DNA from: Vulcanimicrobiota bacterium
GTDB taxonomy: Bacteria > Vulcanimicrobiota > Vulcanimicrobiia > Vulcanimicrobiales > Vulcanimicrobiaceae
DNA length: 58,647 nucleotides
Direction: 5' to 3'
NCBI GenBank assembly: GCA_964658425.1
Contig: CAZZYZ010000001.1
Coordinates: 1-58,647, forward strand
The notes below the pieces were generated by a model, which did no database searches, had not been told where the DNA came from, and was given only the letters and a program-made list of their open reading frames with translations. The position numbers and the translations under genes are program-made. Of this stretch, positions 20,391 to 30,188 are shown in pieces (position 1 is the first letter of the stretch; each line of letters starts with the position of its first letter).

Positions 20391-20454
20391 TCGCAGGTCC
20401 GGTCGACCATCGGTCGGGAACGCATCCCATCCCCCCGCCCGTTCACTAGGTGTG

Positions 20455-20802
20455 ATGCCTCGGTCGTTCGCCATTCTGCTCGTCGCCGGTGCGCTCTCGT
20501 TCGGGACGCTCGGCTTTGCGATGCCCGCCGCGGTCCGCGGCGATGAGACCGCCGATGCGAAGCCCGCGACGAATGCGGGGACCGTTACCGGGACCGTCTC
20601 GGCGATCGACTATCGCTCGAATACGATGACGCTCGATGCGAAGGGCCGCAAGATCGCCGTAACGATCTTGCCGAGCACGTCGATCCAAGGTGCGGGGAGC
20701 GGCTTCCATTCCTCGACCGACATCAAGCGCGGTGCGCGCGTGACGGTCTTGCTGAGCGAACGCGCGGGGATGTTCTCCGCCCAATTGATCACGCTGCACT
20801 GA
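20455..20802 (+). CDS. Small secreted protein, single OB/beta-barrel-like domain (DUF5666-like)
   Basis: ATG 20455 (MPRSFAILLVAGALSFGTLGFA signal) in track ORF 20179-20802. Pattern GTVSAIDYRSNTMTLDAKGRKIAVTILPSTSI...IKRGARVTV. Confidence 0.6.
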   Translation: MPRSFAILLVAGALSFGTLGFAMPAAVRGDETADAKPATNAGTVTGTVSAIDYRSNTMTLDAKGRKIAVTILPSTSIQGAGSGFHSSTDIKRGARVTVLLSERAGMFSAQLITLH

Positions 20803-20845: not shown

Positions 20846-21862
20846 GTGGCGGAGGTGAGTCTCGCGCGGATCGACCTCTCGTTTGGCCGCGGGCCGAACG
20901 CGGTCGCGGCGTTGCGCGACGTCTCGTTCGACGTCCCGGCCGGCTCCCGGCTCGCGATCCTCGGCCCTTCGGGCTGCGGGAAGACGACGCTGCTGCGCGT
21001 GATCGCCGGCCTCGAACGCCCGTCGCGCGGGACGCTGCGCTTCGACGGCGTCGATATCGACGCGATTCGCCCCGAACGTCGGCGCGTCGGGTTCGTCTTC
21101 GCGAGCGACGCGCTCTTCCCGCATCTCTCGGCGCGCGAGAACATTGCGTACGGCGTTCGCGGTGACGCGCGGCGGCGCATCGACGATGTCGCGGAACGCT
21201 GCCGGATCGGCGAGCTCCTCGAGCGCAAGCCGCGCGAACTCTCGGGCGGCGAACGGCAGCGCGTCGCGCTCGCGCGCGCGCTCGCGAGCGACCCGCGCGT
21301 CCTTCTGCTCGACGAGCCGTTCTCGCGGCTCGATGCGCCGCTTCGGCTCGAACTGCGCCGCGAGATCGCGCGCATCCAACGCGAGGCCGCGCTCACGGCG
21401 ATCGTGGTGACGCACGATCAGGAAGAGGCGCTCGCGCTCGGCGATCGGGTCGCGGTCATGCGGGCGGGCCGGATCGAACAGCTCGGGGCGCCGCGCGCGC
21501 TCGTCGACGACCCCGCGACGGCCTTCGTCGCCGGTTTCGTCGGATCGCCCGCGATGGCGTTCCTGCCGGCGTCCGCGCTCGGCATCACGGATGCGCCCAT
21601 GGGAGCGCTCGCCGGGATCCGTGCCGCCGACGTGCACTTGGGCGCCCCGGGTCGCCTCACGGCGCCGGTCCTCGGCGTCGAGGACGGTGCGGAACGCGCG
21701 ATCGTGCAGCTCGGGTTCGCGGGCGCGACGCTCGGCGCCGTCGTCGCGGGCGGTGAGCCGCGCCCGATCGTCGGCGAACGCGTCCGCTTCGACGTCGATC
21801 CCGATCGCGCGCTGCTCTTCGACGCGGACGGCGCGCGCCTCGAACGTCGAATCCGTGCCTGA
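20846..21862 (+). CDS. ABC transporter ATP-binding protein, MalK/UgpC/MsiK-like (sugar-importer type); no permease or binding-protein gene adjacent
   Basis: 338-aa ORF with a GTG start. Walker A GPSGCGKTT, signature LSGGERQRVALARA, Walker B LLLDEP, and a C-terminal MalK-like regulatory domain. Confidence 0.9.
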   Translation: MAEVSLARIDLSFGRGPNAVAALRDVSFDVPAGSRLAILGPSGCGKTTLLRVIAGLERPSRGTLRFDGVDIDAIRPERRRVGFVFASDALFPHLSARENIAYGVRGDARRRIDDVAERCRIGELLERKPRELSGGERQRVALARALASDPRVLLLDEPFSRLDAPLRLELRREIARIQREAALTAIVVTHDQEEALALGDRVAVMRAGRIEQLGAPRALVDDPATAFVAGFVGSPAMAFLPASALGITDAPMGALAGIRAADVHLGAPGRLTAPVLGVEDGAERAIVQLGFAGATLGAVVAGGEPRPIVGERVRFDVDPDRALLFDADGARLERRIRA

Positions 21863-23354
21863 CCTCGAACGGCTCGCGGGCCGCGTTCTCTGCGTCGGCT
21901 TGCCCGGACCGGAGGCGGACGGCGCGTTGCTCGCGCGGCTGCGCCGGCTCGGGCCCGGCGCGATCGTCCTTTTCGCGCGCAACGTCGAATCGGTCGCCGG
22001 CGCGCGCGCGCTCGTCGGGGTCCTGCGCGCGGCGCTCGCGAGCGACGGCTCCATCGCCGTATGCGTCGATCAGGAGGGTGGGCGCGTCGCGCGGATCCCG
22101 CTCGAGAGCCCGATGCCCGCGATGCTCGCACTCGGCGCGACGGACGATCCCGCGCTCGCCGAGCGGGTCGGCCGCGCGCTTGCGGCGACGCTACGCGCGA
22201 TCGATGCCGACGTCGCGTTCGCACCCGTCCTCGATCTCGCGACGAATCACGCGAGCACGGTCATCGGAACGCGCTCGCTCGGCGAGGATCCGGTCCGCGT
22301 CGCCGTGCTCGGCGCCGCGCTCGTGCGCGGCCTGCAGGCGGGCGGCGTCGTTGCGACGCCCAAGCATTTTCCCGGGCACGGAGCGACCGCGGCCGACTCG
22401 CATACGTCGCTGCCGCGCCTCGACGCGCCGCTCGCGACGCTGCGCGCGCGCGAGTGGGAGCCGTTCCGGGCGGCGTTCGCGGCGGGTGCGCGGGCCGTGA
22501 TGACGGCGCACGTCGTCGCACCCGAGCTCGATCCGGCGCGTCCGGCGACGCTTTCGGCGCGCGTGCTCGGAGCGTTACGCGAGGAGCTCGGGTTCGCGGG
22601 CACGTGCTTCACCGATTGCCTCGAGATGGCGGCCGTCGCCGAGGGCTTCGGCACGGCGCGGGCCGGAGTGCTCGCGTTGCGGGCGGGGGCCGATTGCCTC
22701 GTCGTCAGCGCGGATCTCGATCGCGCCGAAGAGCTCCGGGTCGAGATCGTTCGGGCGGTCCGCGCGGGGACGCTGCCGCTCGCGCGGCTCGAGCGGGCGG
22801 CGGCGCGCGTCGCGAGCCTCGTCCCGGGGCGGACGGCTACGGGCGAACCCGACCCGTCGCCGATCGACGCGGCGGCGGTCGCGAAAGAAGTCGCGGCGCG
22901 CGCGATCGTCACCGTTCGCGGCGAGCCGCGGATCGTCGCGGGTTCCGCGGCGACGGTGATCTCGTTCGAGGGCGGTTCGGGCGACGGGGTCGCGGCGAGT
23001 TCGGGCGAGCGTCCGTCGCTCAGCGCCGCGCTGCGTCGCCGGCGCGTGCGGAGCGAAGCGATGCGCGTCCCGCTCGATCCGAGCCCGGGCGCGGTCGAAG
23101 CGCTGCTCGACGTCCTCGGCGATCAGCCCGGGCGCTCGCTCGCGATCGTCACGCGGCGGGCGCACCTCTATGCGGGTCAGCGTGCAACGATCGGCGCACT
23201 GCTCGCGGCGTTTCCCCACGCGATCGTCGTCTCGGCGCTCGAGCCGTACGACCTCGCGGCGAGCGCCGCCGCGCGGCACGTCGCGTGCACGTTCGGCGAC
23301 GATGCGACGACGATCGATGCGCTCGCCGACGCCCTCGTGAGCGGCGCGCGATGA
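21855..23354 (+). CDS. nagZ: Beta-N-acetylhexosaminidase NagZ (GH3) with C-terminal extension; no signal peptide
   Basis: GTG 21855 in track ORF 21591-23354, overlapping the ATPase stop by 8 nt. Motifs DQEGGRV and KHFPGHG are GH3 N-domain hallmarks. Confidence 0.85.
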   Translation: MPDLERLAGRVLCVGLPGPEADGALLARLRRLGPGAIVLFARNVESVAGARALVGVLRAALASDGSIAVCVDQEGGRVARIPLESPMPAMLALGATDDPALAERVGRALAATLRAIDADVAFAPVLDLATNHASTVIGTRSLGEDPVRVAVLGAALVRGLQAGGVVATPKHFPGHGATAADSHTSLPRLDAPLATLRAREWEPFRAAFAAGARAVMTAHVVAPELDPARPATLSARVLGALREELGFAGTCFTDCLEMAAVAEGFGTARAGVLALRAGADCLVVSADLDRAEELRVEIVRAVRAGTLPLARLERAAARVASLVPGRTATGEPDPSPIDAAAVAKEVAARAIVTVRGEPRIVAGSAATVISFEGGSGDGVAASSGERPSLSAALRRRRVRSEAMRVPLDPSPGAVEALLDVLGDQPGRSLAIVTRRAHLYAGQRATIGALLAAFPHAIVVSALEPYDLAASAAARHVACTFGDDATTIDALADALVSGAR

Positions 23355-24427
23355 ACGCCGCCGATGCGGTCCTGCGCGATGCGTGCGGCTCGCGTTTCAC
23401 CGCGGCGGTCCTACGCGTCGAGCGCGGCGGGCGGCTCGCCTTCGAGCGCGCGTACGGTGCGGTCGACGACGCGCCGGGCGCGCGGCGTATCGACATCGCG
23501 ACGCCCTTCGATCTCGCGTCGCTCACGAAGCTCTTCGTCGCGACCGCCGCACTCGAAGCCGTCGCGCGCGGGGCGCTCGAAGTCGACGCGCCGCTCGCGG
23601 CGCTCGTCCCGGCCTGGCGCGGGACCGCGCACGAACGGGTCACGCTGCGAATGCTGCTCGCGCACGCGTCCGGGATGGCCTCGGGCGCCGATTACCGTAC
23701 GCTGCGCGAGCGCAGCGTCGAGACGTTCGCGATCGAACGCGAACTCGCCGGCGTTCCGGGCGCCGCGGTCATCTACAGCGATCTCGGCTTCATCGCTCTC
23801 GGGGCCGTCGTCGCGCGCGCGAACCGCGCGGCGCTCCCCGCGGCGCTGCGACCGGTCCTCGCGTGTCTGCGAACCGAGGCGACGGCGTATCGGCCCCGCA
23901 ACGACGGCGTGGCCGCGATCCCGGCGACGGAGCTCGACGGATGGCGCGGGCGCGTTCGCGGCTTCGTTCACGACGAGAAGGCGTACCTGATGAACGGCAT
24001 CGCGGGGCACGCCGGGCTCTTCGGAACCGCGCGCGACGTGGCCGCGCTCGCGGAGGCGTATCTCGCGCACGTGCGCGGTCGCGAACACGCGCTCTTGCCG
24101 CCCGCGCTCGCGCGCGACGCGATCGCCGAGCAGGCGGCCGATCCCGTTTTGCGGCGCGGCCTCGGTTGGGCGCTCAAGACGAGCGATGCGAACTCGTGCG
24201 GCGCGGCGATGTCGCGCGAAACGTTCGGCCACACGGGCTTCACGGGGACCTCGGTCTGGGTCGACCCCGCGCGCGATCTGTCGATCGTGTTGCTTACGAA
24301 CGCCGTCTACTTCGGCCGCGGGGATCTGCGCGACGTTCGTGCCGCCGTTTGCGATGCCGTCGCCGCGTGGTCCGATGCCGGAGCGCCTTCGGGCGTCGGC
24401 TGCGAATCGAACGCGGACCTGCGATGA
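23351..24427 (+). CDS. Beta-lactamase/transpeptidase-fold serine hydrolase (class C/AmpH-like); candidate AmiE-type MurNAc-L-Ala amidase; no signal peptide
   Basis: ATG 23351 in track ORF 22061-24427 (ATGA overlap with nagZ). SxxK = SLTK, YSD(L)G, HTGFTG box. Confidence 0.75.
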   Translation: MNAADAVLRDACGSRFTAAVLRVERGGRLAFERAYGAVDDAPGARRIDIATPFDLASLTKLFVATAALEAVARGALEVDAPLAALVPAWRGTAHERVTLRMLLAHASGMASGADYRTLRERSVETFAIERELAGVPGAAVIYSDLGFIALGAVVARANRAALPAALRPVLACLRTEATAYRPRNDGVAAIPATELDGWRGRVRGFVHDEKAYLMNGIAGHAGLFGTARDVAALAEAYLAHVRGREHALLPPALARDAIAEQAADPVLRRGLGWALKTSDANSCGAAMSRETFGHTGFTGTSVWVDPARDLSIVLLTNAVYFGRGDLRDVRAAVCDAVAAWSDAGAPSGVGCESNADLR

Positions 24428-25602
24428 GCGTGCGCGCGATCGGGCTCATGTCGGGGACGTCGCTCGACGGGATCGACGCCGCACGCGTCGCGCTGCGTCC
24501 CCGCGGCGACGGATACGACGTGAACGTTGAAAACTTCATCACCGTACCGTTCGAGGATCCGCTGCGCGAGCGCATCCTCGCGGCGCTCCCGCCGAGCGCG
24601 CCGACCGTCGAGGAGGTGTGCGCGCTCGACGCGGTGCTCGGCGACGCGTTCGCCTCGGCCGCGCGCGAAGCGGCGGCGGGTCTCGCAATCGATTACGTCG
24701 CGACGCACGGGTTGACCGCATTCCATCGCGGCGAGGCCTCGCTCACGCTGCAGATCGGATCGCCGTACGCGATCCGCGACGCCGCGCGGGCGAGCGTGGT
24801 CTTCGATTTTCGACGTGCGGATTGCGCCGCCGGCGGCAACGGCGCGCCGCTCGTCCCGTACGTCGACGGGCTGCTCTTCGCGGCGCCGGGGGAAGACGTC
24901 GTCGCGCTCAATCTCGGCGGGATCGCGAACGTCACGGTGCTGCGCGGCGATCGTTCCCCGAGCGCTGCGATCGCGTTCGATACGGGTCCGGCGAACATGC
25001 TGCTCGACGCTTTCGTACGGGACCGTACGGGTGGCCGCGAGCGCTGCGATCGAGACGGCGCGTACGCGCTGCGCGGCGAGCCCGCTCGCGCGATCGTGAG
25101 CGAGCTCGCGCGCCGCAATGCGGCGTATCTCGACGCGCCGCCGCCGAAATCGACGGGCCGCGAACGTTTCGGGGCGCACGCGCTGCACGCGCACGCCGAT
25201 CTGCTCGCGCCGCTCTCGCTTCACGACGGCTGCGCGACGCTCGTCGCGTTCACCGTCGCGACGATCGGCGATGCGCTCGGCGCTCACGCCCCCGCCGGAG
25301 CGCGCGTGATCGCGAGCGGCGGCGGAGCGCGCAATCCCGCCCTCGTCGCCGCGCTCGCGCGTCGCATCGCGGAGCGCGGCGGGTCGCTCGTGCTCTCGGA
25401 CGCGCTCGGCCTCGACGCGGATGCGAAGGAGGCCGTCGCGTTCGCGGTGCTCGGCTACGAAACGCTGCGCGGCCGTCCGGCGAATCTGCCGAGCGCGACG
25501 GGCGCCCGCCGCCCCGCGATCCTCGGCGCGATCGCTCCGTACGATCTCGCGGCGCTGCTCGACAAGATCGCGCGCGATGCCGCGACGAATGGTGCCGCAT
25601 GA
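24424..25602 (+). CDS. anmK: Anhydro-N-acetylmuramic acid kinase
   Basis: ATG 24424 in track ORF 23383-25602 (ATGA overlap). N-terminus IGLMSGTSLDGIDAA and full-length AnmK pattern. Confidence 0.9.
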   Translation: MSVRAIGLMSGTSLDGIDAARVALRPRGDGYDVNVENFITVPFEDPLRERILAALPPSAPTVEEVCALDAVLGDAFASAAREAAAGLAIDYVATHGLTAFHRGEASLTLQIGSPYAIRDAARASVVFDFRRADCAAGGNGAPLVPYVDGLLFAAPGEDVVALNLGGIANVTVLRGDRSPSAAIAFDTGPANMLLDAFVRDRTGGRERCDRDGAYALRGEPARAIVSELARRNAAYLDAPPPKSTGRERFGAHALHAHADLLAPLSLHDGCATLVAFTVATIGDALGAHAPAGARVIASGGGARNPALVAALARRIAERGGSLVLSDALGLDADAKEAVAFAVLGYETLRGRPANLPSATGARRPAILGAIAPYDLAALLDKIARDAATNGAA

Positions 25603-26498
25603 ACGAGCGGATCGCGGTCGGGATCGATGCGGGCGGCACGGCGACGGCGGCGGCGAGTTCGTGCGGCGGCACGCGCGCGGCGAGCGCGCGCGAGGGTCCG
25701 GCGAACGCGAGTTCGGCCGGGACGACGGCCGCGCTCGCGACGATCATGCGTGCGGTGAGCGCGGTGACCGGCGGCCGCATCCCGAGCGCGCTCTACGTCG
25801 CGGCGGCCGGGGCGGGCCGCGAAGAGATTCGAACGAGTTTGGAAGGCGGTCTTCGCGCCGCGTATCCCGGGGCGCGCCTCGCCGTCGAGAGCGACGTGCG
25901 CGTCGCGCTCCGTGCGACGCTGCCGGCCGGGCCCGGGATCGTGCTGATCGCCGGGACCGGGAGCGTCGCCTACGCGGAATCGGGCGACCGTCGCGCGCGC
26001 GTCGGCGGCGCCGGCTATCTGCTCGGCGACGAGGGTTCGGCGTACGCGATCGGATTCGCGGCGTTGCGGCGGCTCGCGCGCGTCTTCGACGGCCGCGAAC
26101 GCGAAGACGAGACGACCGCGCTCGCGGCTCGCGCGCTCGACGCGCCGGATCGCGACGCGCTGCTGCGCGCGCTCTACGCGAAGCCGGTCGACGTGGCGAC
26201 GATCGCCGCCCTCGCGCCGAGCGTGATCGCATTCGCGGCGAAAGGCAATCGCGTCGCGATGAAGATCGTGCAGGACGCGGCGCGCGAGCTCGGCGACCTC
26301 GTCCTCGCCGCCGCGCGCGCCGCGGAACTGCGCGACGCATCGCCCGCCGTCGTTCTGGCGGGCGGTCTCCTGCGCGAGAACTCCGTGCTCTCGTTTCTGC
26401 TCGAGACGCGGATCGCGGGCGATCTTCCCGGCGCGAACGTGCTGCGCGCGCATGCCGAGCCCGTCGATGCGGCGCTCGCGTTCGCCGAGGCATTGTGA
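25599..26498 (+). CDS. BadF/BadG/BcrA/BcrD-type ATPase = GlcNAc/MurNAc kinase (NagK/MurK-like)
   Basis: ATG 25599 in track ORF 24618-26498 (ATGA overlap). GIDAGGT, AGTGSV and GGAGYLLGDEGSAY motifs. Confidence 0.8.
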   Translation: MNERIAVGIDAGGTATAAASSCGGTRAASAREGPANASSAGTTAALATIMRAVSAVTGGRIPSALYVAAAGAGREEIRTSLEGGLRAAYPGARLAVESDVRVALRATLPAGPGIVLIAGTGSVAYAESGDRRARVGGAGYLLGDEGSAYAIGFAALRRLARVFDGREREDETTALAARALDAPDRDALLRALYAKPVDVATIAALAPSVIAFAAKGNRVAMKIVQDAARELGDLVLAAARAAELRDASPAVVLAGGLLRENSVLSFLLETRIAGDLPGANVLRAHAEPVDAALAFAEAL

Positions 26499-27391
26499 GC
26501 GACGGACTCTCCGCGGTCACGGAGGCGATCAACGCCGCGACGCACGATCTCGATTTGCTCGCGACGGCCGATCTCGTCGCGCTGCTCGGCCGCGAACAGC
26601 GCGCGGCGGCGGAAGCGGTCGAACGCGCGACGCCGCAGATCGCGCGTGCGGTCGATGCGATCTCCGCGCGCCTGCGCGACGGCGGCTCGCTGCATTACGT
26701 CGGCGCGGGGACGAGCGGGCGACTCGCGACGCTCGACGCCGCGGAATGTCCGCCGACGTTCGGGACGCCCGCGAAACTCGTCGTCGCGCACGTCGCCGGG
26801 GGTGCGTCCGCGCTCGTGCGCGCGATCGAGGGCGCCGAAGACGACGCGGCCGCCGGTGCCGCGGCGGTCGCGGCGCTCGCGCCGTGCGACGTCGCCGCGT
26901 GCATCTCCGCGAGCGGCCGCGCGCCGTTCGTCGTGGCCGCGCAGCGCGCCGCACGCGCCCGCGGCGCGCTGACGATTGCGGTGACGAGCGACGCGGATTC
27001 GCCGCTCGCACGCGAAGCCGAGATCGCGATCGCGGTCGCGACCGGCCCCGAGCCGCTCGCCGGTTCGACGCGCCTCAAGGCCGGGACCGCGCAGAAACTC
27101 GTGCTCAATGCCCTCTCCACGGCGACGATGGTTCGGCTCGGAAAAGTCTACGACAACGTGATGATCGACGTCGTCGCCACGAACGCGAAACTGCGCGTGC
27201 GCGCGCGGCTGCTCGTGGAGTCGCTCGCGACGGTCGATGCCGCGGAGGCCGAGCGATTGCTTCGCGCCGCGGACGGCAGCGCGAAGGTCGCCGTCGCGAT
27301 GGCGCGGCTCGGCATCGATGCGCCCGCAGCTCGCGCCGCGCTCGCGGGCGTCGGCGGCTTCCTACGGCCGCTGATGTCGCCGCGCGCGTGA
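26495..27391 (+). CDS. murQ: N-acetylmuramic acid 6-phosphate etherase
   Basis: GTG 26495 in track ORF 25421-27391 (GTGA overlap). SIS-domain signature LHYVGAGTSGRLATLDAAECPPTFG. TRLKAGTAQKLVLN. Confidence 0.92.
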   Translation: MSDGLSAVTEAINAATHDLDLLATADLVALLGREQRAAAEAVERATPQIARAVDAISARLRDGGSLHYVGAGTSGRLATLDAAECPPTFGTPAKLVVAHVAGGASALVRAIEGAEDDAAAGAAAVAALAPCDVAACISASGRAPFVVAAQRAARARGALTIAVTSDADSPLAREAEIAIAVATGPEPLAGSTRLKAGTAQKLVLNALSTATMVRLGKVYDNVMIDVVATNAKLRVRARLLVESLATVDAAEAERLLRAADGSAKVAVAMARLGIDAPAARAALAGVGGFLRPLMSPRA

Positions 27392-29046
27392 GCGCGGCGT
27401 CGCGCGTTCGCGTCGCCGTATCCGCGCTCGCGATTTTCTTCTCGTGGTGCGCGCTCGTACGCACGCCGATGCCGTCGAGCGCCTCGGCGAACGATGCACC
27501 CGCCGCGCCGATCGTTGCGCAAACGGTGTTGCGGTCGATCGCCTTCGTGCCGCTCGACGATCGGCCCGTGACGTTGCAGTTGCCGATCGATCTCGGCACG
27601 ATCGCGGGGCAGCCGGTGCTGACGCCGCCGCGTGCGACGATCGGTAACTATCTGCGGCCAGGCGACGGCGATGCGATCCTACGGTGGCTTACCTCCGATG
27701 CGACCCGCGGTGCGAGCGCGCTCGTCGCGTCGACCGACATGATCGCGTACGGCGGCCTCGTCGCGTCGCGGATACCCGGCATCGCTGCGGACGATGCGTA
27801 CGTACGCCTTCGCGCGCTCGCGGATCTCAAAGCGTCGCGCGAGCTCGGGTTCGTCGGTGCGTTCGCGACGGTGATGCGGCTCGCTCCGACGGGCGTTCCG
27901 CGACTCGGTTTGGCAATGAACTATTATGCGACCGGGCGGACGGTCGATGACCTGCAGGCGTATGCGAACCTCCCCGACCCGCCGGCTTCGGCCGCGGACC
28001 GCGGGAAGGCGACGCGCTTGCGCGCGGCGATCGGCCCGACCGCGCTCGACGCCTATCTCGCGACGCGGCGCCGAAATCGCGCCGTCGACACCTTCGCGCT
28101 CGAGCTCGCGTCGCGCGGCGGTTTCGATCGGCTCGTCATCGGCCAGGACGATGCGGGGCCGGTCGGCCTGCACCTCAGGGACGTCGCGGCCCTCGAAGGG
28201 ACGGCGCGGGATCTCGGCCTCGGCGAGCGTGCCGCGATCGAACCGGGCGCCGACGAACTCGGCATGGTGCTCCTCGCGCAGGCCTTCGCACGCAACGTCG
28301 GCTGGCTGCCGACCGTACGCGTCGTCTATTCGCGGCCCGACGGCGGCGCGGTGAACGATCGCCTCGAATTCGCGCCGATCGACGTGACGATCGCTCGGCT
28401 GATCGCGGGCTGCGGCGCGCGCCGCGTCGCGCGGGACGCCGACGTGACGCTCTACGTACGCGTCGGCGGCACGAACGACGCCGACGAGCGAACGTTCGAG
28501 GACGGCCTGGTCGCCGACGTTCGCGCCGGGCGCAGCGTCACCGTCGCCGATCTCACGTTCCTCGACGGCGAGCCCGGGCCGCAGCAGCGCGAGCTGACCG
28601 AAGCGCTCGTCGCGAGCGGGGTCGCGGGGCGGCTCGACGGTTTCGCGTCGTGGAACACGGATGCGAACACCGTCGGCACGTCGCTCGCGGCCGCGATCGC
28701 GGCGGGCGCGGGGAGGCGCGCGGGGCGATTCGACGCGCGCGCGCTCGCCGCGTTCCTCCTCGATCGCTACGTCGACGATTACGCGTTCCATCAATACGTG
28801 CGGCCCGCGCTCAATCGCACGCTGCGCGCCGACGATATCGATACGACGCTGCTGCTGCCCGAGATCGCACGCGAGGCGGCTTCGCAGAATCGCGGCGATC
28901 TCTGGCCCTACGCGGTCGATTTACTCGCGAGAATTTTTCCGCAATACGGTGACGCCGGGCTCACGATCACGCTGCCGTGGAGCCGGACGTTCGAAACGCA
29001 GATCGACGTCCGCTTACGAGCGGCGAACCCGACGCGGCGCCCGTAA
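27388..29046 (+). CDS. Exported DUF4127-like protein of unknown function
   Basis: GTG 27388 in track ORF 26452-29046 (GTGA overlap with murQ). Signal-peptide-like N-terminus (VAVSALAIFFSWCALV...SASA). The about 550-aa length and the IAFVPLDDRPV motif match my recollection of DUF4127; the family call is from memory only. Confidence 0.6.
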   Translation: MSAASRVRVAVSALAIFFSWCALVRTPMPSSASANDAPAAPIVAQTVLRSIAFVPLDDRPVTLQLPIDLGTIAGQPVLTPPRATIGNYLRPGDGDAILRWLTSDATRGASALVASTDMIAYGGLVASRIPGIAADDAYVRLRALADLKASRELGFVGAFATVMRLAPTGVPRLGLAMNYYATGRTVDDLQAYANLPDPPASAADRGKATRLRAAIGPTALDAYLATRRRNRAVDTFALELASRGGFDRLVIGQDDAGPVGLHLRDVAALEGTARDLGLGERAAIEPGADELGMVLLAQAFARNVGWLPTVRVVYSRPDGGAVNDRLEFAPIDVTIARLIAGCGARRVARDADVTLYVRVGGTNDADERTFEDGLVADVRAGRSVTVADLTFLDGEPGPQQRELTEALVASGVAGRLDGFASWNTDANTVGTSLAAAIAAGAGRRAGRFDARALAAFLLDRYVDDYAFHQYVRPALNRTLRADDIDTTLLLPEIAREAASQNRGDLWPYAVDLLARIFPQYGDAGLTITLPWSRTFETQIDVRLRAANPTRRP

Positions 29047-29409
29047 CGCATAGACGATCGCGAGCGCCGCGTTGAAGGGCATCGGGCCGAGCGTCTTCCA
29101 CGTCGCGACGACGTTGCCGCGCGTGATCTCGACGAGCGGGAGAAGCACGGCGAAGGCTTGATCGAGCGCGATCAGCCAGAGCAGCATGCGATAGCGTCGC
29201 AGATCGTAGAGCAGCAGCACGTAGAGCAACGTGACGACGAGGTACTCTCCGCCCGCGATCGTCGTAAGCGCGGGATCCTTCGTCGGGACGTCCAGCAACG
29301 GGCCGAGCAATTGCTGGAAGAAGAGCGTGAGGACGACGACCGTGAGATCGACGCAGCCGCCGATCGCGATCGCGATGCGCAGCACCGAGAGGCGCGCGAG
29401 CGCCGTCAC
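29014..29409 (-). CDS. Small integral membrane protein (4 TM), unknown function
   Basis: 131-aa ORF with a GTG start overlapping the fabI stop (GTGA). Hydrophobic helices throughout. Confidence 0.6.
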   Translation of the reverse strand: MTALARLSVLRIAIAIGGCVDLTVVVLTLFFQQLLGPLLDVPTKDPALTTIAGGEYLVVTLLYVLLLYDLRRYRMLLWLIALDQAFAVLLPLVEITRGNVVATWKTLGPMPFNAALAIVYALRAPRRVRRS

Positions 29410-30188
29410 GCAGCCGGTTCCGGAAACATCCCCATCGCATGATAGCCCGCATCGACGAAGTGCACGTCGGCGGTGATCGCGGCGGAGAGATCGGAGGCCA
29501 GATAGACGGCCGTCTTGCCCACGTCTTCCGCCGTCACGTTACGCCGCAGCGGAGCCGCGGCCGAGACGCGATCGAGCATCTTGCGAAAGTCCTTGACCTG
29601 GCGCGAACTCGCGGTCGAGATCGGGCCGGCCGAGATCGCGTTCACGCGGATCGCACGATCGCCGAGGTCGAAGGCGAGATAGCGCACGATCGATTCGAGC
29701 GCGGCTTTCACGATGCCGGCGACGTTGTAATTCGGGACGATCGCGGTCGAGCCGAGGTAGGAGAGCGCCATGACGCTCGCGCCGTCCGAGAGCTCGCCGA
29801 CGAGCGCGTTGACGAGCGCGATCAGCGAGAACGCCGAGATGTCGGCCGCGAGCGCGAAGCCCGCGCGCGTCGTCGTATAGACCTTGCCCGCGAGATCTTC
29901 TTTGTTGACGAACGCGATCGAATGCACGAGCGTGTCGAGGCGGCCGTACTCCGCGCGAACGCTCGCGGCGAGCGCGGCGAGCGATTCGTCGGAAGCGACG
30001 TCGCACGGATACGCGCGTCCGCCGAGTTCGGCCGCGAGCTTCTCGACCTCGCCGCGCACGCGCTCGCCCTGATACGTCAGCGCGACCCGTGCGCCGTGAG
30101 CGTGCAACTCGCGTGCGATACCGGTCGCGATACTCCAGCGATTCGCGACGCCCGTCACGAGTGCGATCTTGCCGTTCAACAACTCCAT
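29406..30188 (-). CDS. fabI: Enoyl-[acyl-carrier-protein] reductase (NADH), FabI
   Basis: Internal ATG 30188 (MELLNGKIALVTGVANRWSIA...) of track ORF 29406-30329. SDR fold with FabI-type Y..M...K region. Confidence 0.93.
   Translation of the reverse strand: MELLNGKIALVTGVANRWSIATGIARELHAHGARVALTYQGERVRGEVEKLAAELGGRAYPCDVASDESLAALAASVRAEYGRLDTLVHSIAFVNKEDLAGKVYTTTRAGFALAADISAFSLIALVNALVGELSDGASVMALSYLGSTAIVPNYNVAGIVKAALESIVRYLAFDLGDRAIRVNAISAGPISTASSRQVKDFRKMLDRVSAAAPLRRNVTAEDVGKTAVYLASDLSAAITADVHFVDAGYHAMGMFPEPAA

Follow-up and report, generated by a model that had tools for sequence, protein, structure and literature searches.

What does a protein of a family without an assigned function contribute at the end of an operon for peptidoglycan recycling? 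The question is raised by a 58,647-nucleotide stretch of DNA from a Vulcanimicrobiota bacterium (contig CAZZYZ010000001.1, here called the window; GC content 67%), in which a gene for a 552-residue DUF4127 protein (27388..29046, forward strand) follows murQ as the last of seven cistrons. The closest homologues of the protein are named Vulcanimicrobiaceae or Eremiobacterota. Most of what is known about peptidoglycan recycling comes from work on proteobacteria and Bacillus. The tightly coupled operon described here, which an entire phylum of diderm bacteria has kept, ends in an orphan protein and is without the canonical AmpG, AmpD and LdcA. A sequence-only reading of the locus had described an exported DUF4127-like protein translationally coupled to murQ and had proposed that it acts on peptidoglycan or muropeptides outside the cytoplasm, by analogy with the exo-muramidase NamZ. 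Its observations are confirmed by the analysis described below, and its interpretation is supported in part: DUF4127 membership, a signal-like N-terminus, a phylum-wide linkage to murQ and a fusion with a GH3 glycosidase speak for it, and linkage beyond the clade, the need for a NamZ analogue, the fold, conserved export and a dependence of MurQ on the protein do not. The account that we favor, with a probability of roughly 45%, is that the protein, the last product of the operon and coupled to murQ, acts as a hydrolase in the periplasm, where it would prepare amino-sugar fragments of murein for recycling; we infer the periplasmic location, the hydrolase activity and its substrate.

A DUF4127 gene overlapping murQ

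The gene begins at GTG 27388-27390, which overlaps the murQ stop codon TGA (27389-27391) as the tetranucleotide GTGA (27388..27391, forward strand), a direct reading that points to translational coupling. From this start, 552 codons run to position 29046 with zero internal stops, and translation thus bears out the frame that had been proposed. Two alternative in-frame starts lie further on, ATG 27469 and GTG 27526. Third-position GC stays close to 0.85 throughout the gene (0.85 across 27391-27468, 0.83 across 27469-27537 and 0.85 in the remainder), and because the value at the N-terminal end equals that of the gene body, this stretch is coding rather than intergenic. All seven genes of the operon are co-directional and all six junctions overlap, five of them by 4 nucleotides (ATGA or GTGA) and the junction between the ATP-binding cassette (ABC) ATPase gene and nagZ by 8. 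The DUF4127 gene is the last cistron because a reverse-strand coding signal starts directly past its stop. The corresponding reverse-strand open reading frame (28967-29452; 131-161 residues) meets the 3' end of the DUF4127 gene tail to tail, shows the codon-position GC pattern of that strand, matches no Pfam family and may overlap the DUF4127 gene by up to about 80 nucleotides.

Membership in DUF4127, which had been suggested earlier, was established by a match to PF13552 with an E value of 9.5e-96 and 321.7 bits against a gathering cut-off of 27. The match covers profile positions 1-488 of 489 in a single uninterrupted stretch, residues 51-539 (27538..29004, forward strand), which the Pfam match, structure model and conservation together resolve into two alpha/beta domains and a C-terminal helical part; a six-frame search of the genome gave the same result. 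The segment IAFVPLDDRPV, earlier singled out as conserved-looking, occupies residues 51-61 and opens the profile. An exhaustive search returned 1,672 representative DUF4127 clusters at 50% identity. Connections to other families were not recovered: six diverse members searched against Pfam at E values up to 10 matched PF13552 and nothing else, no NCBIfam model matches the DUF4127 protein, a feature search of the ESM Atlas gave no usable match beyond the family and a shape search of the same resource returned DUF4127 clusters exclusively.

The first 34 residues (27388..27489, forward strand) resemble a signal peptide, in agreement with the original description. They read, in order, SAASRVR, VAVSALAIFFSWCALV and RTPMPSSASA|ND. 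By inspection and hydropathy, this stretch has the pattern of a Sec-type (general secretory) signal, with a charged n-region containing R6 and R8, a hydrophobic h-region of 16 residues (Kyte-Doolittle hydropathy 2.3 over 12 residues) and a small-x-small motif, A32-S-A34, preceding N35. The gap from the hydrophobic core to ASA is long, at about 10 residues. A lipoprotein was considered and rejected, as the F-S-W that precedes Cys21 is not a lipobox, and the twin-arginine (Tat) motif S/T-R-R-x-F-L is absent from the window's copy, which reads S-R-V-R-V. Signal-like extensions of the same architecture and different sequence occur in 96 of 120 homologues (63-74% identity), and 16 of these 96 carry an RRxFL motif of the Tat type; such motifs support export because they would be pointless in a cytoplasmic protein. 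The protein had also been called the only exported product of its operon. NagZ, the beta-lactamase-fold protein, AnmK and MurQ indeed have no signal-like N-terminus, and for the ABC ATPase and the kinase the comparison covers the first 30 residues. An Omp85 homologue is present in the genome, and electron microscopy of the one member of the phylum in culture shows an envelope typical of Gram-negative bacteria (PMC9758169), so export would be expected to end in the periplasm, where we provisionally place the window's protein.

The linkage to murQ is conserved across the phylum. Loci were collected from one genome per species with a 30-sequence DUF4127 alignment as the query, which returned 80 loci, and linkage was counted in the 61 that had at least 45% identity and sufficient upstream DNA. 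In 59 of the 61, murQ lies directly upstream on the same strand (L019, L040 and L044 are counted as linked, their earlier flag having come only from overlapping murQ and DUF4127 alignments). These linked loci span many genera at 47-67% identity, and in most cases the order of the five other genes (ABC ATPase, nagZ, beta-lactamase-fold gene, anmK and kinase) is kept as well. Only two loci do not have murQ in this position, L003 (71% identity), where the gene stands behind pyruvate carboxylase, and L056. In the phylum, 116 out of 121 sampled genomes encode DUF4127. The murQ linkage is therefore strong but clade-bound. Two side observations concern these loci. The closest homologues in the genome collection, L003:3310-4911 (71% identity) and L002:34-1581 (78% identity), are flanked by pyruvate carboxylase or methylmalonyl-CoA mutase rather than by the recycling operon and come from bins labelled Rhodospirillales and Janthinobacterium, the explanation being either mis-binning of the contigs or a relocation of the gene. 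Twelve related loci, L023 (9578-9940), L007, L010, L012, L014, L020, L024, L036, L037, L048, L061 and L067, have a gene for a small exported protein of about 120 residues inserted between murQ and DUF4127; it has the conserved pattern ...PPGGKYKDCHGY..HVS..NIRVHCIDG...GLYGFK, matches no family in Pfam and has no copy in the window.

The six upstream genes, all on the forward strand, encode a recognizable recycling pathway. The first cistron (20846..21862) specifies an orphan ABC ATPase of the sugar-importer type (PF00005, E 2e-39; UgpC/MalK-like), and no permease or binding-protein gene was found in its flanks. It is followed by nagZ (21855..23354), a GH3 beta-N-acetylhexosaminidase gene (PF00933, E 5e-67; NF003740, 206.9 bits versus a cut-off of 207) whose product is the sole GH3 match in the genome, and by a gene for a beta-lactamase/PBP4B-like serine hydrolase (23351..24427; PF00144, E 1e-41; PBP4B model 99 bits, below cut-off) with the N-terminus MNAADAVLRD. 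Next come anmK (24424..25602; PF03702, E 3e-86), encoding anhydro-N-acetylmuramic acid (anhydro-MurNAc) kinase, and a gene for a BadF/BadG-type sugar kinase resembling N-acetylglucosamine (GlcNAc) kinase (25599..26498; PF01869, E 1e-27; NagK_SO3507, 79.8 bits, below cut-off). The gene for MurNAc-6-phosphate etherase, murQ (26495..27391; NF003915, 348 bits; SIS domains), completes the set and overlaps the kinase gene as GTGA. Just 5' of the ABC ATPase gene, positions 20452-20802 of the forward strand encode a small exported protein of about 116 residues, MPRSFAILLVAGALSFGTLGFA..., which matches nothing in Pfam and does not detectably resemble the small protein that intervenes between murQ and DUF4127 in relatives.

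Predicted fold, conserved residues and a possible role

An AlphaFold2 model built from 141 sequences for residues 40-552 has a mean predicted local distance difference test score (pLDDT) of 95.7 and a predicted template modeling score (pTM) of 0.95; residues 46-305 modeled alone reach a pLDDT of 94.9. The model consists of an alpha/beta/alpha sandwich of five strands at the N-terminus, which carries a long helical insertion, a flavodoxin-like second domain and a C-terminal helical region with a beta-hairpin. Foldseek against the PDB gave template modeling (TM) scores of at most 0.27 for the whole model and 0.40 for the N-terminal domain, with root-mean-square deviations of about 10 A, and these were rejected as matches; sequence and profile searches of the PDB gave no match. 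No solved structure thus matches the predicted model convincingly, and the glycosidase, amidase or peptidase fold that a structure search had been expected to reveal was not recovered by Foldseek against the PDB. NamZ-type chains are absent from the best 50 matches of either the whole model or the N-terminal domain, an absence that is compatible with a shared fold. The structural matches to SGNH/GDSL enzymes and to binding proteins, the latter covering a single lobe, stand in flat lists near noise level. SGNH/GDSL catalytic machinery was considered and rejected: these esterases, among them carbohydrate esterases and the peptidoglycan O-acetyltransferase domains PatB and OatA, have a catalytic Ser and His without counterpart in DUF4127, where L-D-D-R-P replaces the block I Ser and no His is invariant.

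Conservation was read from the same number of DUF4127 sequences, 141, which span 27-74% identity. Six residues are invariant in all of them: G122, R128, R164, R227, D255 and D289. Near-invariant positions include D57, R59, S115, D117, S127, R229, [D/E]254, [E/Q]290, E327 and D388 and, on the C-terminal side, W422-N-T, N427, R460, D464, R472, W531, R533 and E536; besides the six invariant residues, about 30 positions reach a conservation of at least 90%, each of them present in the window's protein. Some 25 polar residues are near-invariant. The conserved motifs PLDDRP, SxDMxxYGGLxxSR, MRLAPT, GQDDA, PGADE and WNTxxNTxG fall after strands, the customary position of an active site in such folds. 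This pattern would fit carboxylate-based catalysis together with an arginine-lined pocket for an acidic substrate. The active site may then lie at the C-terminal ends of the parallel strands of the two Rossmann/flavodoxin-like domains, where the carboxylate pairs [D/E]254-D255 and D289-[E/Q]290, with D57, D117, E327 and D388, would serve in acid/base catalysis or metal binding. A ring of arginines, R59, R128, R164, R227, R229, R460, R472 and R533, could hold the acidic group of the substrate, the candidates being MurNAc, through its lactyl carboxylate, and the stem peptide, through its carboxylates.

The other cell-wall enzymes of the genome, which is 91.7% complete, indicate where such an enzyme might act. 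Nine matches to SLT lytic transglycosylases, two Amidase_3 enzymes and one NagA were found; GH73 is missing, GH20 gives a marginal match only, the one GH3 enzyme bears no signal and no periplasmic exo-N-acetylglucosaminidase is evident. A periplasmic NamZ requires partner enzymes that expose MurNAc ends. As no partner of this kind is evident, there is room for DUF4127. We propose that the protein would work in the periplasm beside the separately encoded, Tat-exported NamZ and would trim amino-sugar fragments of the cell wall, for example the ends of glycan strands or the muropeptides released by the nine lytic transglycosylases and the two Amidase_3 enzymes. Import of the trimmed products would follow, and NagZ, the beta-lactamase-fold enzyme, AnmK, the kinase and MurQ would complete their processing.

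Natural fusions favor an enzyme active on carbohydrates or the cell wall. One protein, P0146 (1162 residues; L087:1578-5066), joins a signal peptide and DUF4127 to a two-domain, NagZ-like GH3 part that is 42% identical to the window's NagZ and has beta-N-acetylhexosaminidase as its best NCBIfam model; this arrangement was seen on one 5.7-kb contig only. In Bacillota, DUF4127 is fused to S-layer homology (SLH) or dockerin domains. An in-frame LrgB-DUF4127 fusion (P0128, P0223; L047:9239-11554) links an LrgB-like membrane protein through a hydrophobic linker to the DUF4127 core, and the L047 copy occupies the interval from murQ to the place where DUF4127 usually stands. For the window's own protein (P0001), a search for longer versions with fused parts returned none, which is weak evidence. 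Among 15 exported members at 30-36% identity from Acidobacteriota, Bacteroidota, Armatimonadota and Verrucomicrobiota, the recurrent neighbors are an unannotated protein of about 430 residues, hydantoinase-A-like ATPases and PF12831 flavoproteins, with major facilitator superfamily (MFS) transporters, GlcNAc 2-epimerase, GH20, ROK, GH38 and SusD/TonB proteins as further neighbors; an amino-sugar theme runs through these surroundings. The Acidobacteriota set has a regular order, exported DUF4127, then the 430-residue protein, a hydantoinase-A-like ATPase and often a PF12831 flavoprotein (L077:2339-7556, L075:9827-16839, L076:1969-8546, L070:1345-7647, L073:4692-9885), and the ATPase carries a fused N-terminal extension in L073 and L076. 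This conserved gene set is apparently undescribed.

Several results weigh against a conserved periplasmic role in murein recycling. The sequence-only reading had tied the protein to amino-sugar genes by association, and this tie, which holds in 59 of 61 loci within the phylum, is lost outside it: none of the 15 distant exported members has murQ, anmK or nagZ nearby. Because the linkage lies within one phylum, it amounts to a single evolutionary event plus inheritance. Five of the sampled genomes do not have DUF4127, and of these one also does without MurQ and four keep it (G063, G097, G105 and G117, the count resting partly on G117, which is unpublished); in the three loci inspected, unrelated convergent genes come after murQ. 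DUF4127 is thus not indispensable for MurQ. The genome holds its own Tat-signal NamZ on another contig. No His, Cys or Lys is invariant in the 141 sequences (H262 occurs in 112 and H468 in 57), which argues against SGNH and common amidase mechanisms. Export itself varies: with the start of each murQ-linked orthologue delimited by the preceding stop codon and by the end of murQ, a signal-like N-terminus is present in only 24 of 57, and the other 33 have only a purely hydrophobic N-terminus of 11-17 residues, so periplasmic action is not a conserved requirement. Finally, no paper on the family turned up under the names DUF4127, PF13552 or IPR025394.

Other explanations and the side of the membrane

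Two other explanations that keep the protein an enzyme survive best, although we regard both as unlikely. According to one, the protein is an amidase or peptidase that cuts the MurNAc-L-Ala bond or trims the stem peptide in the manner of LdcA or MpaA, on whichever side of the membrane the orthologue resides. Neither AmpD/Amidase_2 nor LdcA/Peptidase_S66 was found in the genome at its given completeness, eight invariant arginines would fit a poly-carboxylate stem peptide and the variable localization of orthologues fits a soluble substrate. The neighborhoods of relatives also lend it something: the hydantoinase/oxoprolinase-like ATPases of Acidobacteriota suggest lactam or amide chemistry and are accompanied by PF12831/DAO-like flavoproteins, and a signal-less paralogue from the same phylum ends a Liv-type (amino-acid/amide) ABC importer operon. 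However, such enzymes typically rely on an invariant His, Cys or Lys or on a Ser-Lys system, none of which DUF4127 shows, the beta-lactamase-fold protein of the operon is already a candidate for the amidase step, and the fusion partners (GH3, SLH, dockerin) and many neighbors (GH20, GlcNAc 2-epimerase, ROK) are related to sugars. The Liv-type operon mentioned here was seen in Eremiobacterota (L062:5134-11476, L063:2-4021) in the order Peripla_BP_6, LivH, LivM, LivG, LivF and DUF4127, the paralogue being 39-40% identical to the window's protein; in L062, anmK, the kinase gene and murQ are found about 3 kb upstream of this paralogue.

According to the other, which we judge equally unlikely, the protein is a general hydrolase of amino-sugar glycans, for example wall polymers containing N-acetylmannosamine or GlcNAc or environmental glycans, and its position behind murQ was fixed in an ancestor of the phylum and over-states a specific role in murein recycling. 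The gene surroundings outside the phylum are what such a hydrolase would lead one to expect, since exported members stand near GlcNAc 2-epimerase, GH20, GH38, ROK, MFS, SusD/TonB and PF12831 genes and never near murQ, anmK or nagZ; within the phylum, some relatives have murQ without DUF4127 and the orthologues of L003 and L056 are not behind murQ. What this account explains less well is the stop/start overlap with murQ and the persistence of the arrangement across so many genera and such divergence, the near universality of DUF4127 in the phylum and the existence of a fusion to a NagZ-like GH3 enzyme.

Still less probable is a periplasmic solute-binding or receptor protein that hands muropeptides to an ABC importer powered by the orphan ATPase. 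In its favor, the window's protein is probably exported, has about 500 residues and is built of alpha/beta lobes, the operon opens with a sugar-type ABC ATPase and encodes no binding protein nearby, and no AmpG match in the genome exceeds the cut-off. Against it, no permease genes lie in the operon or its flanks, the Liv-type operon with a DUF4127 paralogue has its own binding protein, the structural matches to binding proteins are those near-noise, single-lobe ones, and about half of the family has no signal: among the best 149 clusters, 56 are signal-like and 54 begin directly at the conserved core. Together with the GH3, SLH and dockerin fusions, which are typical of enzymes, and a dense set of invariant Asp, Glu and Arg residues that looks catalytic, this distribution leads us to favor an enzyme. 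The weakest explanation, which we consider very improbable, is that the protein starts at ATG 27469 or GTG 27526, or retains an uncleaved membrane anchor, and acts in or at the cytoplasm; these in-frame starts, the unusually long region between core and ASA and the 33 operon-linked orthologues without a canonical signal would permit this, but the third-position GC of 0.85 across 27391-27468, a GTGA overlap that matches the coupling style of the operon's junctions, and the signal-like N-termini of 96 of 120 close homologues, 16 with Tat motifs that would be meaningless in a cytoplasmic protein, speak against it.

The variable N-termini of the orthologues deserve attention in their own right. 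Mapped on a family tree computed with N-termini excluded, the export label changes 6 times versus about 39 times in shuffles, so export is clade-structured. The short hydrophobic N-termini, such as VNLAALLLASIV- and MQIAALLFALIT-, begin at the ATGA/GTGA overlap and run directly into strand beta1, with neither a charged n-region nor a cleavage region; they are found in L025, L028, L029, L032, L045 and 28 more loci. An extension of 11-17 residues does not make a canonical Sec signal, and only at the cost of beta1 could it be long enough to cross a membrane as a helix, so these orthologues may be exported or cytoplasmic. If the short forms are cytoplasmic, one and the same step of the operon would be carried out inside the membrane in some genera and outside it in others, just as NagZ acts on opposite sides when B. 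subtilis is compared with E. coli, and so does the MurNAc-L-Ala amidase. This would point to a soluble fragment rather than the sacculus as the substrate. Signal-bearing and signal-less orthologues in the same operon constitute a natural experiment on the location of a recycling step.

Comparison with known systems

Comparison within the family sets the window's protein apart from the members without a signal peptide. These have a full-length domain with the same near-invariant residues, and PF12831 flavoproteins and amino-sugar neighbors recur around them. Unlike the window's protein, they have neither a signal peptide nor linkage to murQ, anmK or nagZ; they adjoin SMC or housekeeping genes and are separate from the exported clades on the tree.

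NamZ (YbbC, DUF1343, GH171, exo-beta-N-acetylmuramidase) is the enzyme to which the window's protein had been likened. In B. subtilis, NamZ is encoded by the last gene of the murQ operon and is a secreted glycosidase with a Rossmann-like alpha/beta/alpha catalytic domain, whose active site lies between two domains and receives an Arg from the second (PMC8054146). The likeness extends to the position at the end of a murQ operon, to secretion, which is predicted for the window's protein, and to a former DUF designation, as well as to two alpha/beta domains with acidic residues at strand ends and a second-domain arginine that would point into the inter-domain cleft. DUF4127 differs in being larger, with about 500 mature residues, and in having an additional helical C-terminal part. 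Homology was tested and rejected, since hhalign of the 141-sequence DUF4127 profile against the single NamZ sequence of the genome gave a probability of 0.3%, and the window's protein matches neither PF07075 nor PF20732, even at E values up to 10. The analogy is therefore a fair one of architecture, and a DUF4127 protein standing in for NamZ is not needed for muramidase activity because the genome encodes a true NamZ (PF07075 and PF20732). That gene lies away from the recycling operon, at C31:17577-18893 (L089:8578-9894), encodes the twin-arginine signal TRRDLLRASAAAAVAASVAAF...ARAAA and adjoins a 3-hydroxyisobutyrate-dehydrogenase-like gene and a LuxR-type regulator.

DUF1343/NamZ also sets the precedent for assigning a function to a whole family. 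More tentatively, we put forward a wider claim, that the hydrolases of cell-wall fragments include DUF4127 as a new family, in that sense a second surprise of the NamZ type, whose fold is without any solved relative and which adds to murein turnover an extra step, on the periplasmic side in this clade, that the paradigms of E. coli and B. subtilis do not contain. If this is true, the Eremiobacterota operon would provide the first physiological assignment for DUF4127, and one assay would annotate a large orphan family of about 1,700 clusters in many phyla, possibly a new CAZy or peptidase family.

Gram-negative muropeptide recycling in E. coli and Pseudomonas relies on AmpG, NagZ, AmpD, AnmK, MurQ and NagK (see also PMC5371409 and PMC13046382). 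The window resembles this pathway in clustering genes for NagZ, AnmK, MurQ and a GlcNAc-kinase-type enzyme whose products are not signal-like, which implies import of the anhydro-muropeptides made by lytic transglycosylases. It differs from the model pathways, which have no counterpart of an exported, murQ-coupled DUF4127 protein, and in place of AmpG, AmpD and LdcA the window's genome has an ABC ATPase and a beta-lactamase-fold protein.

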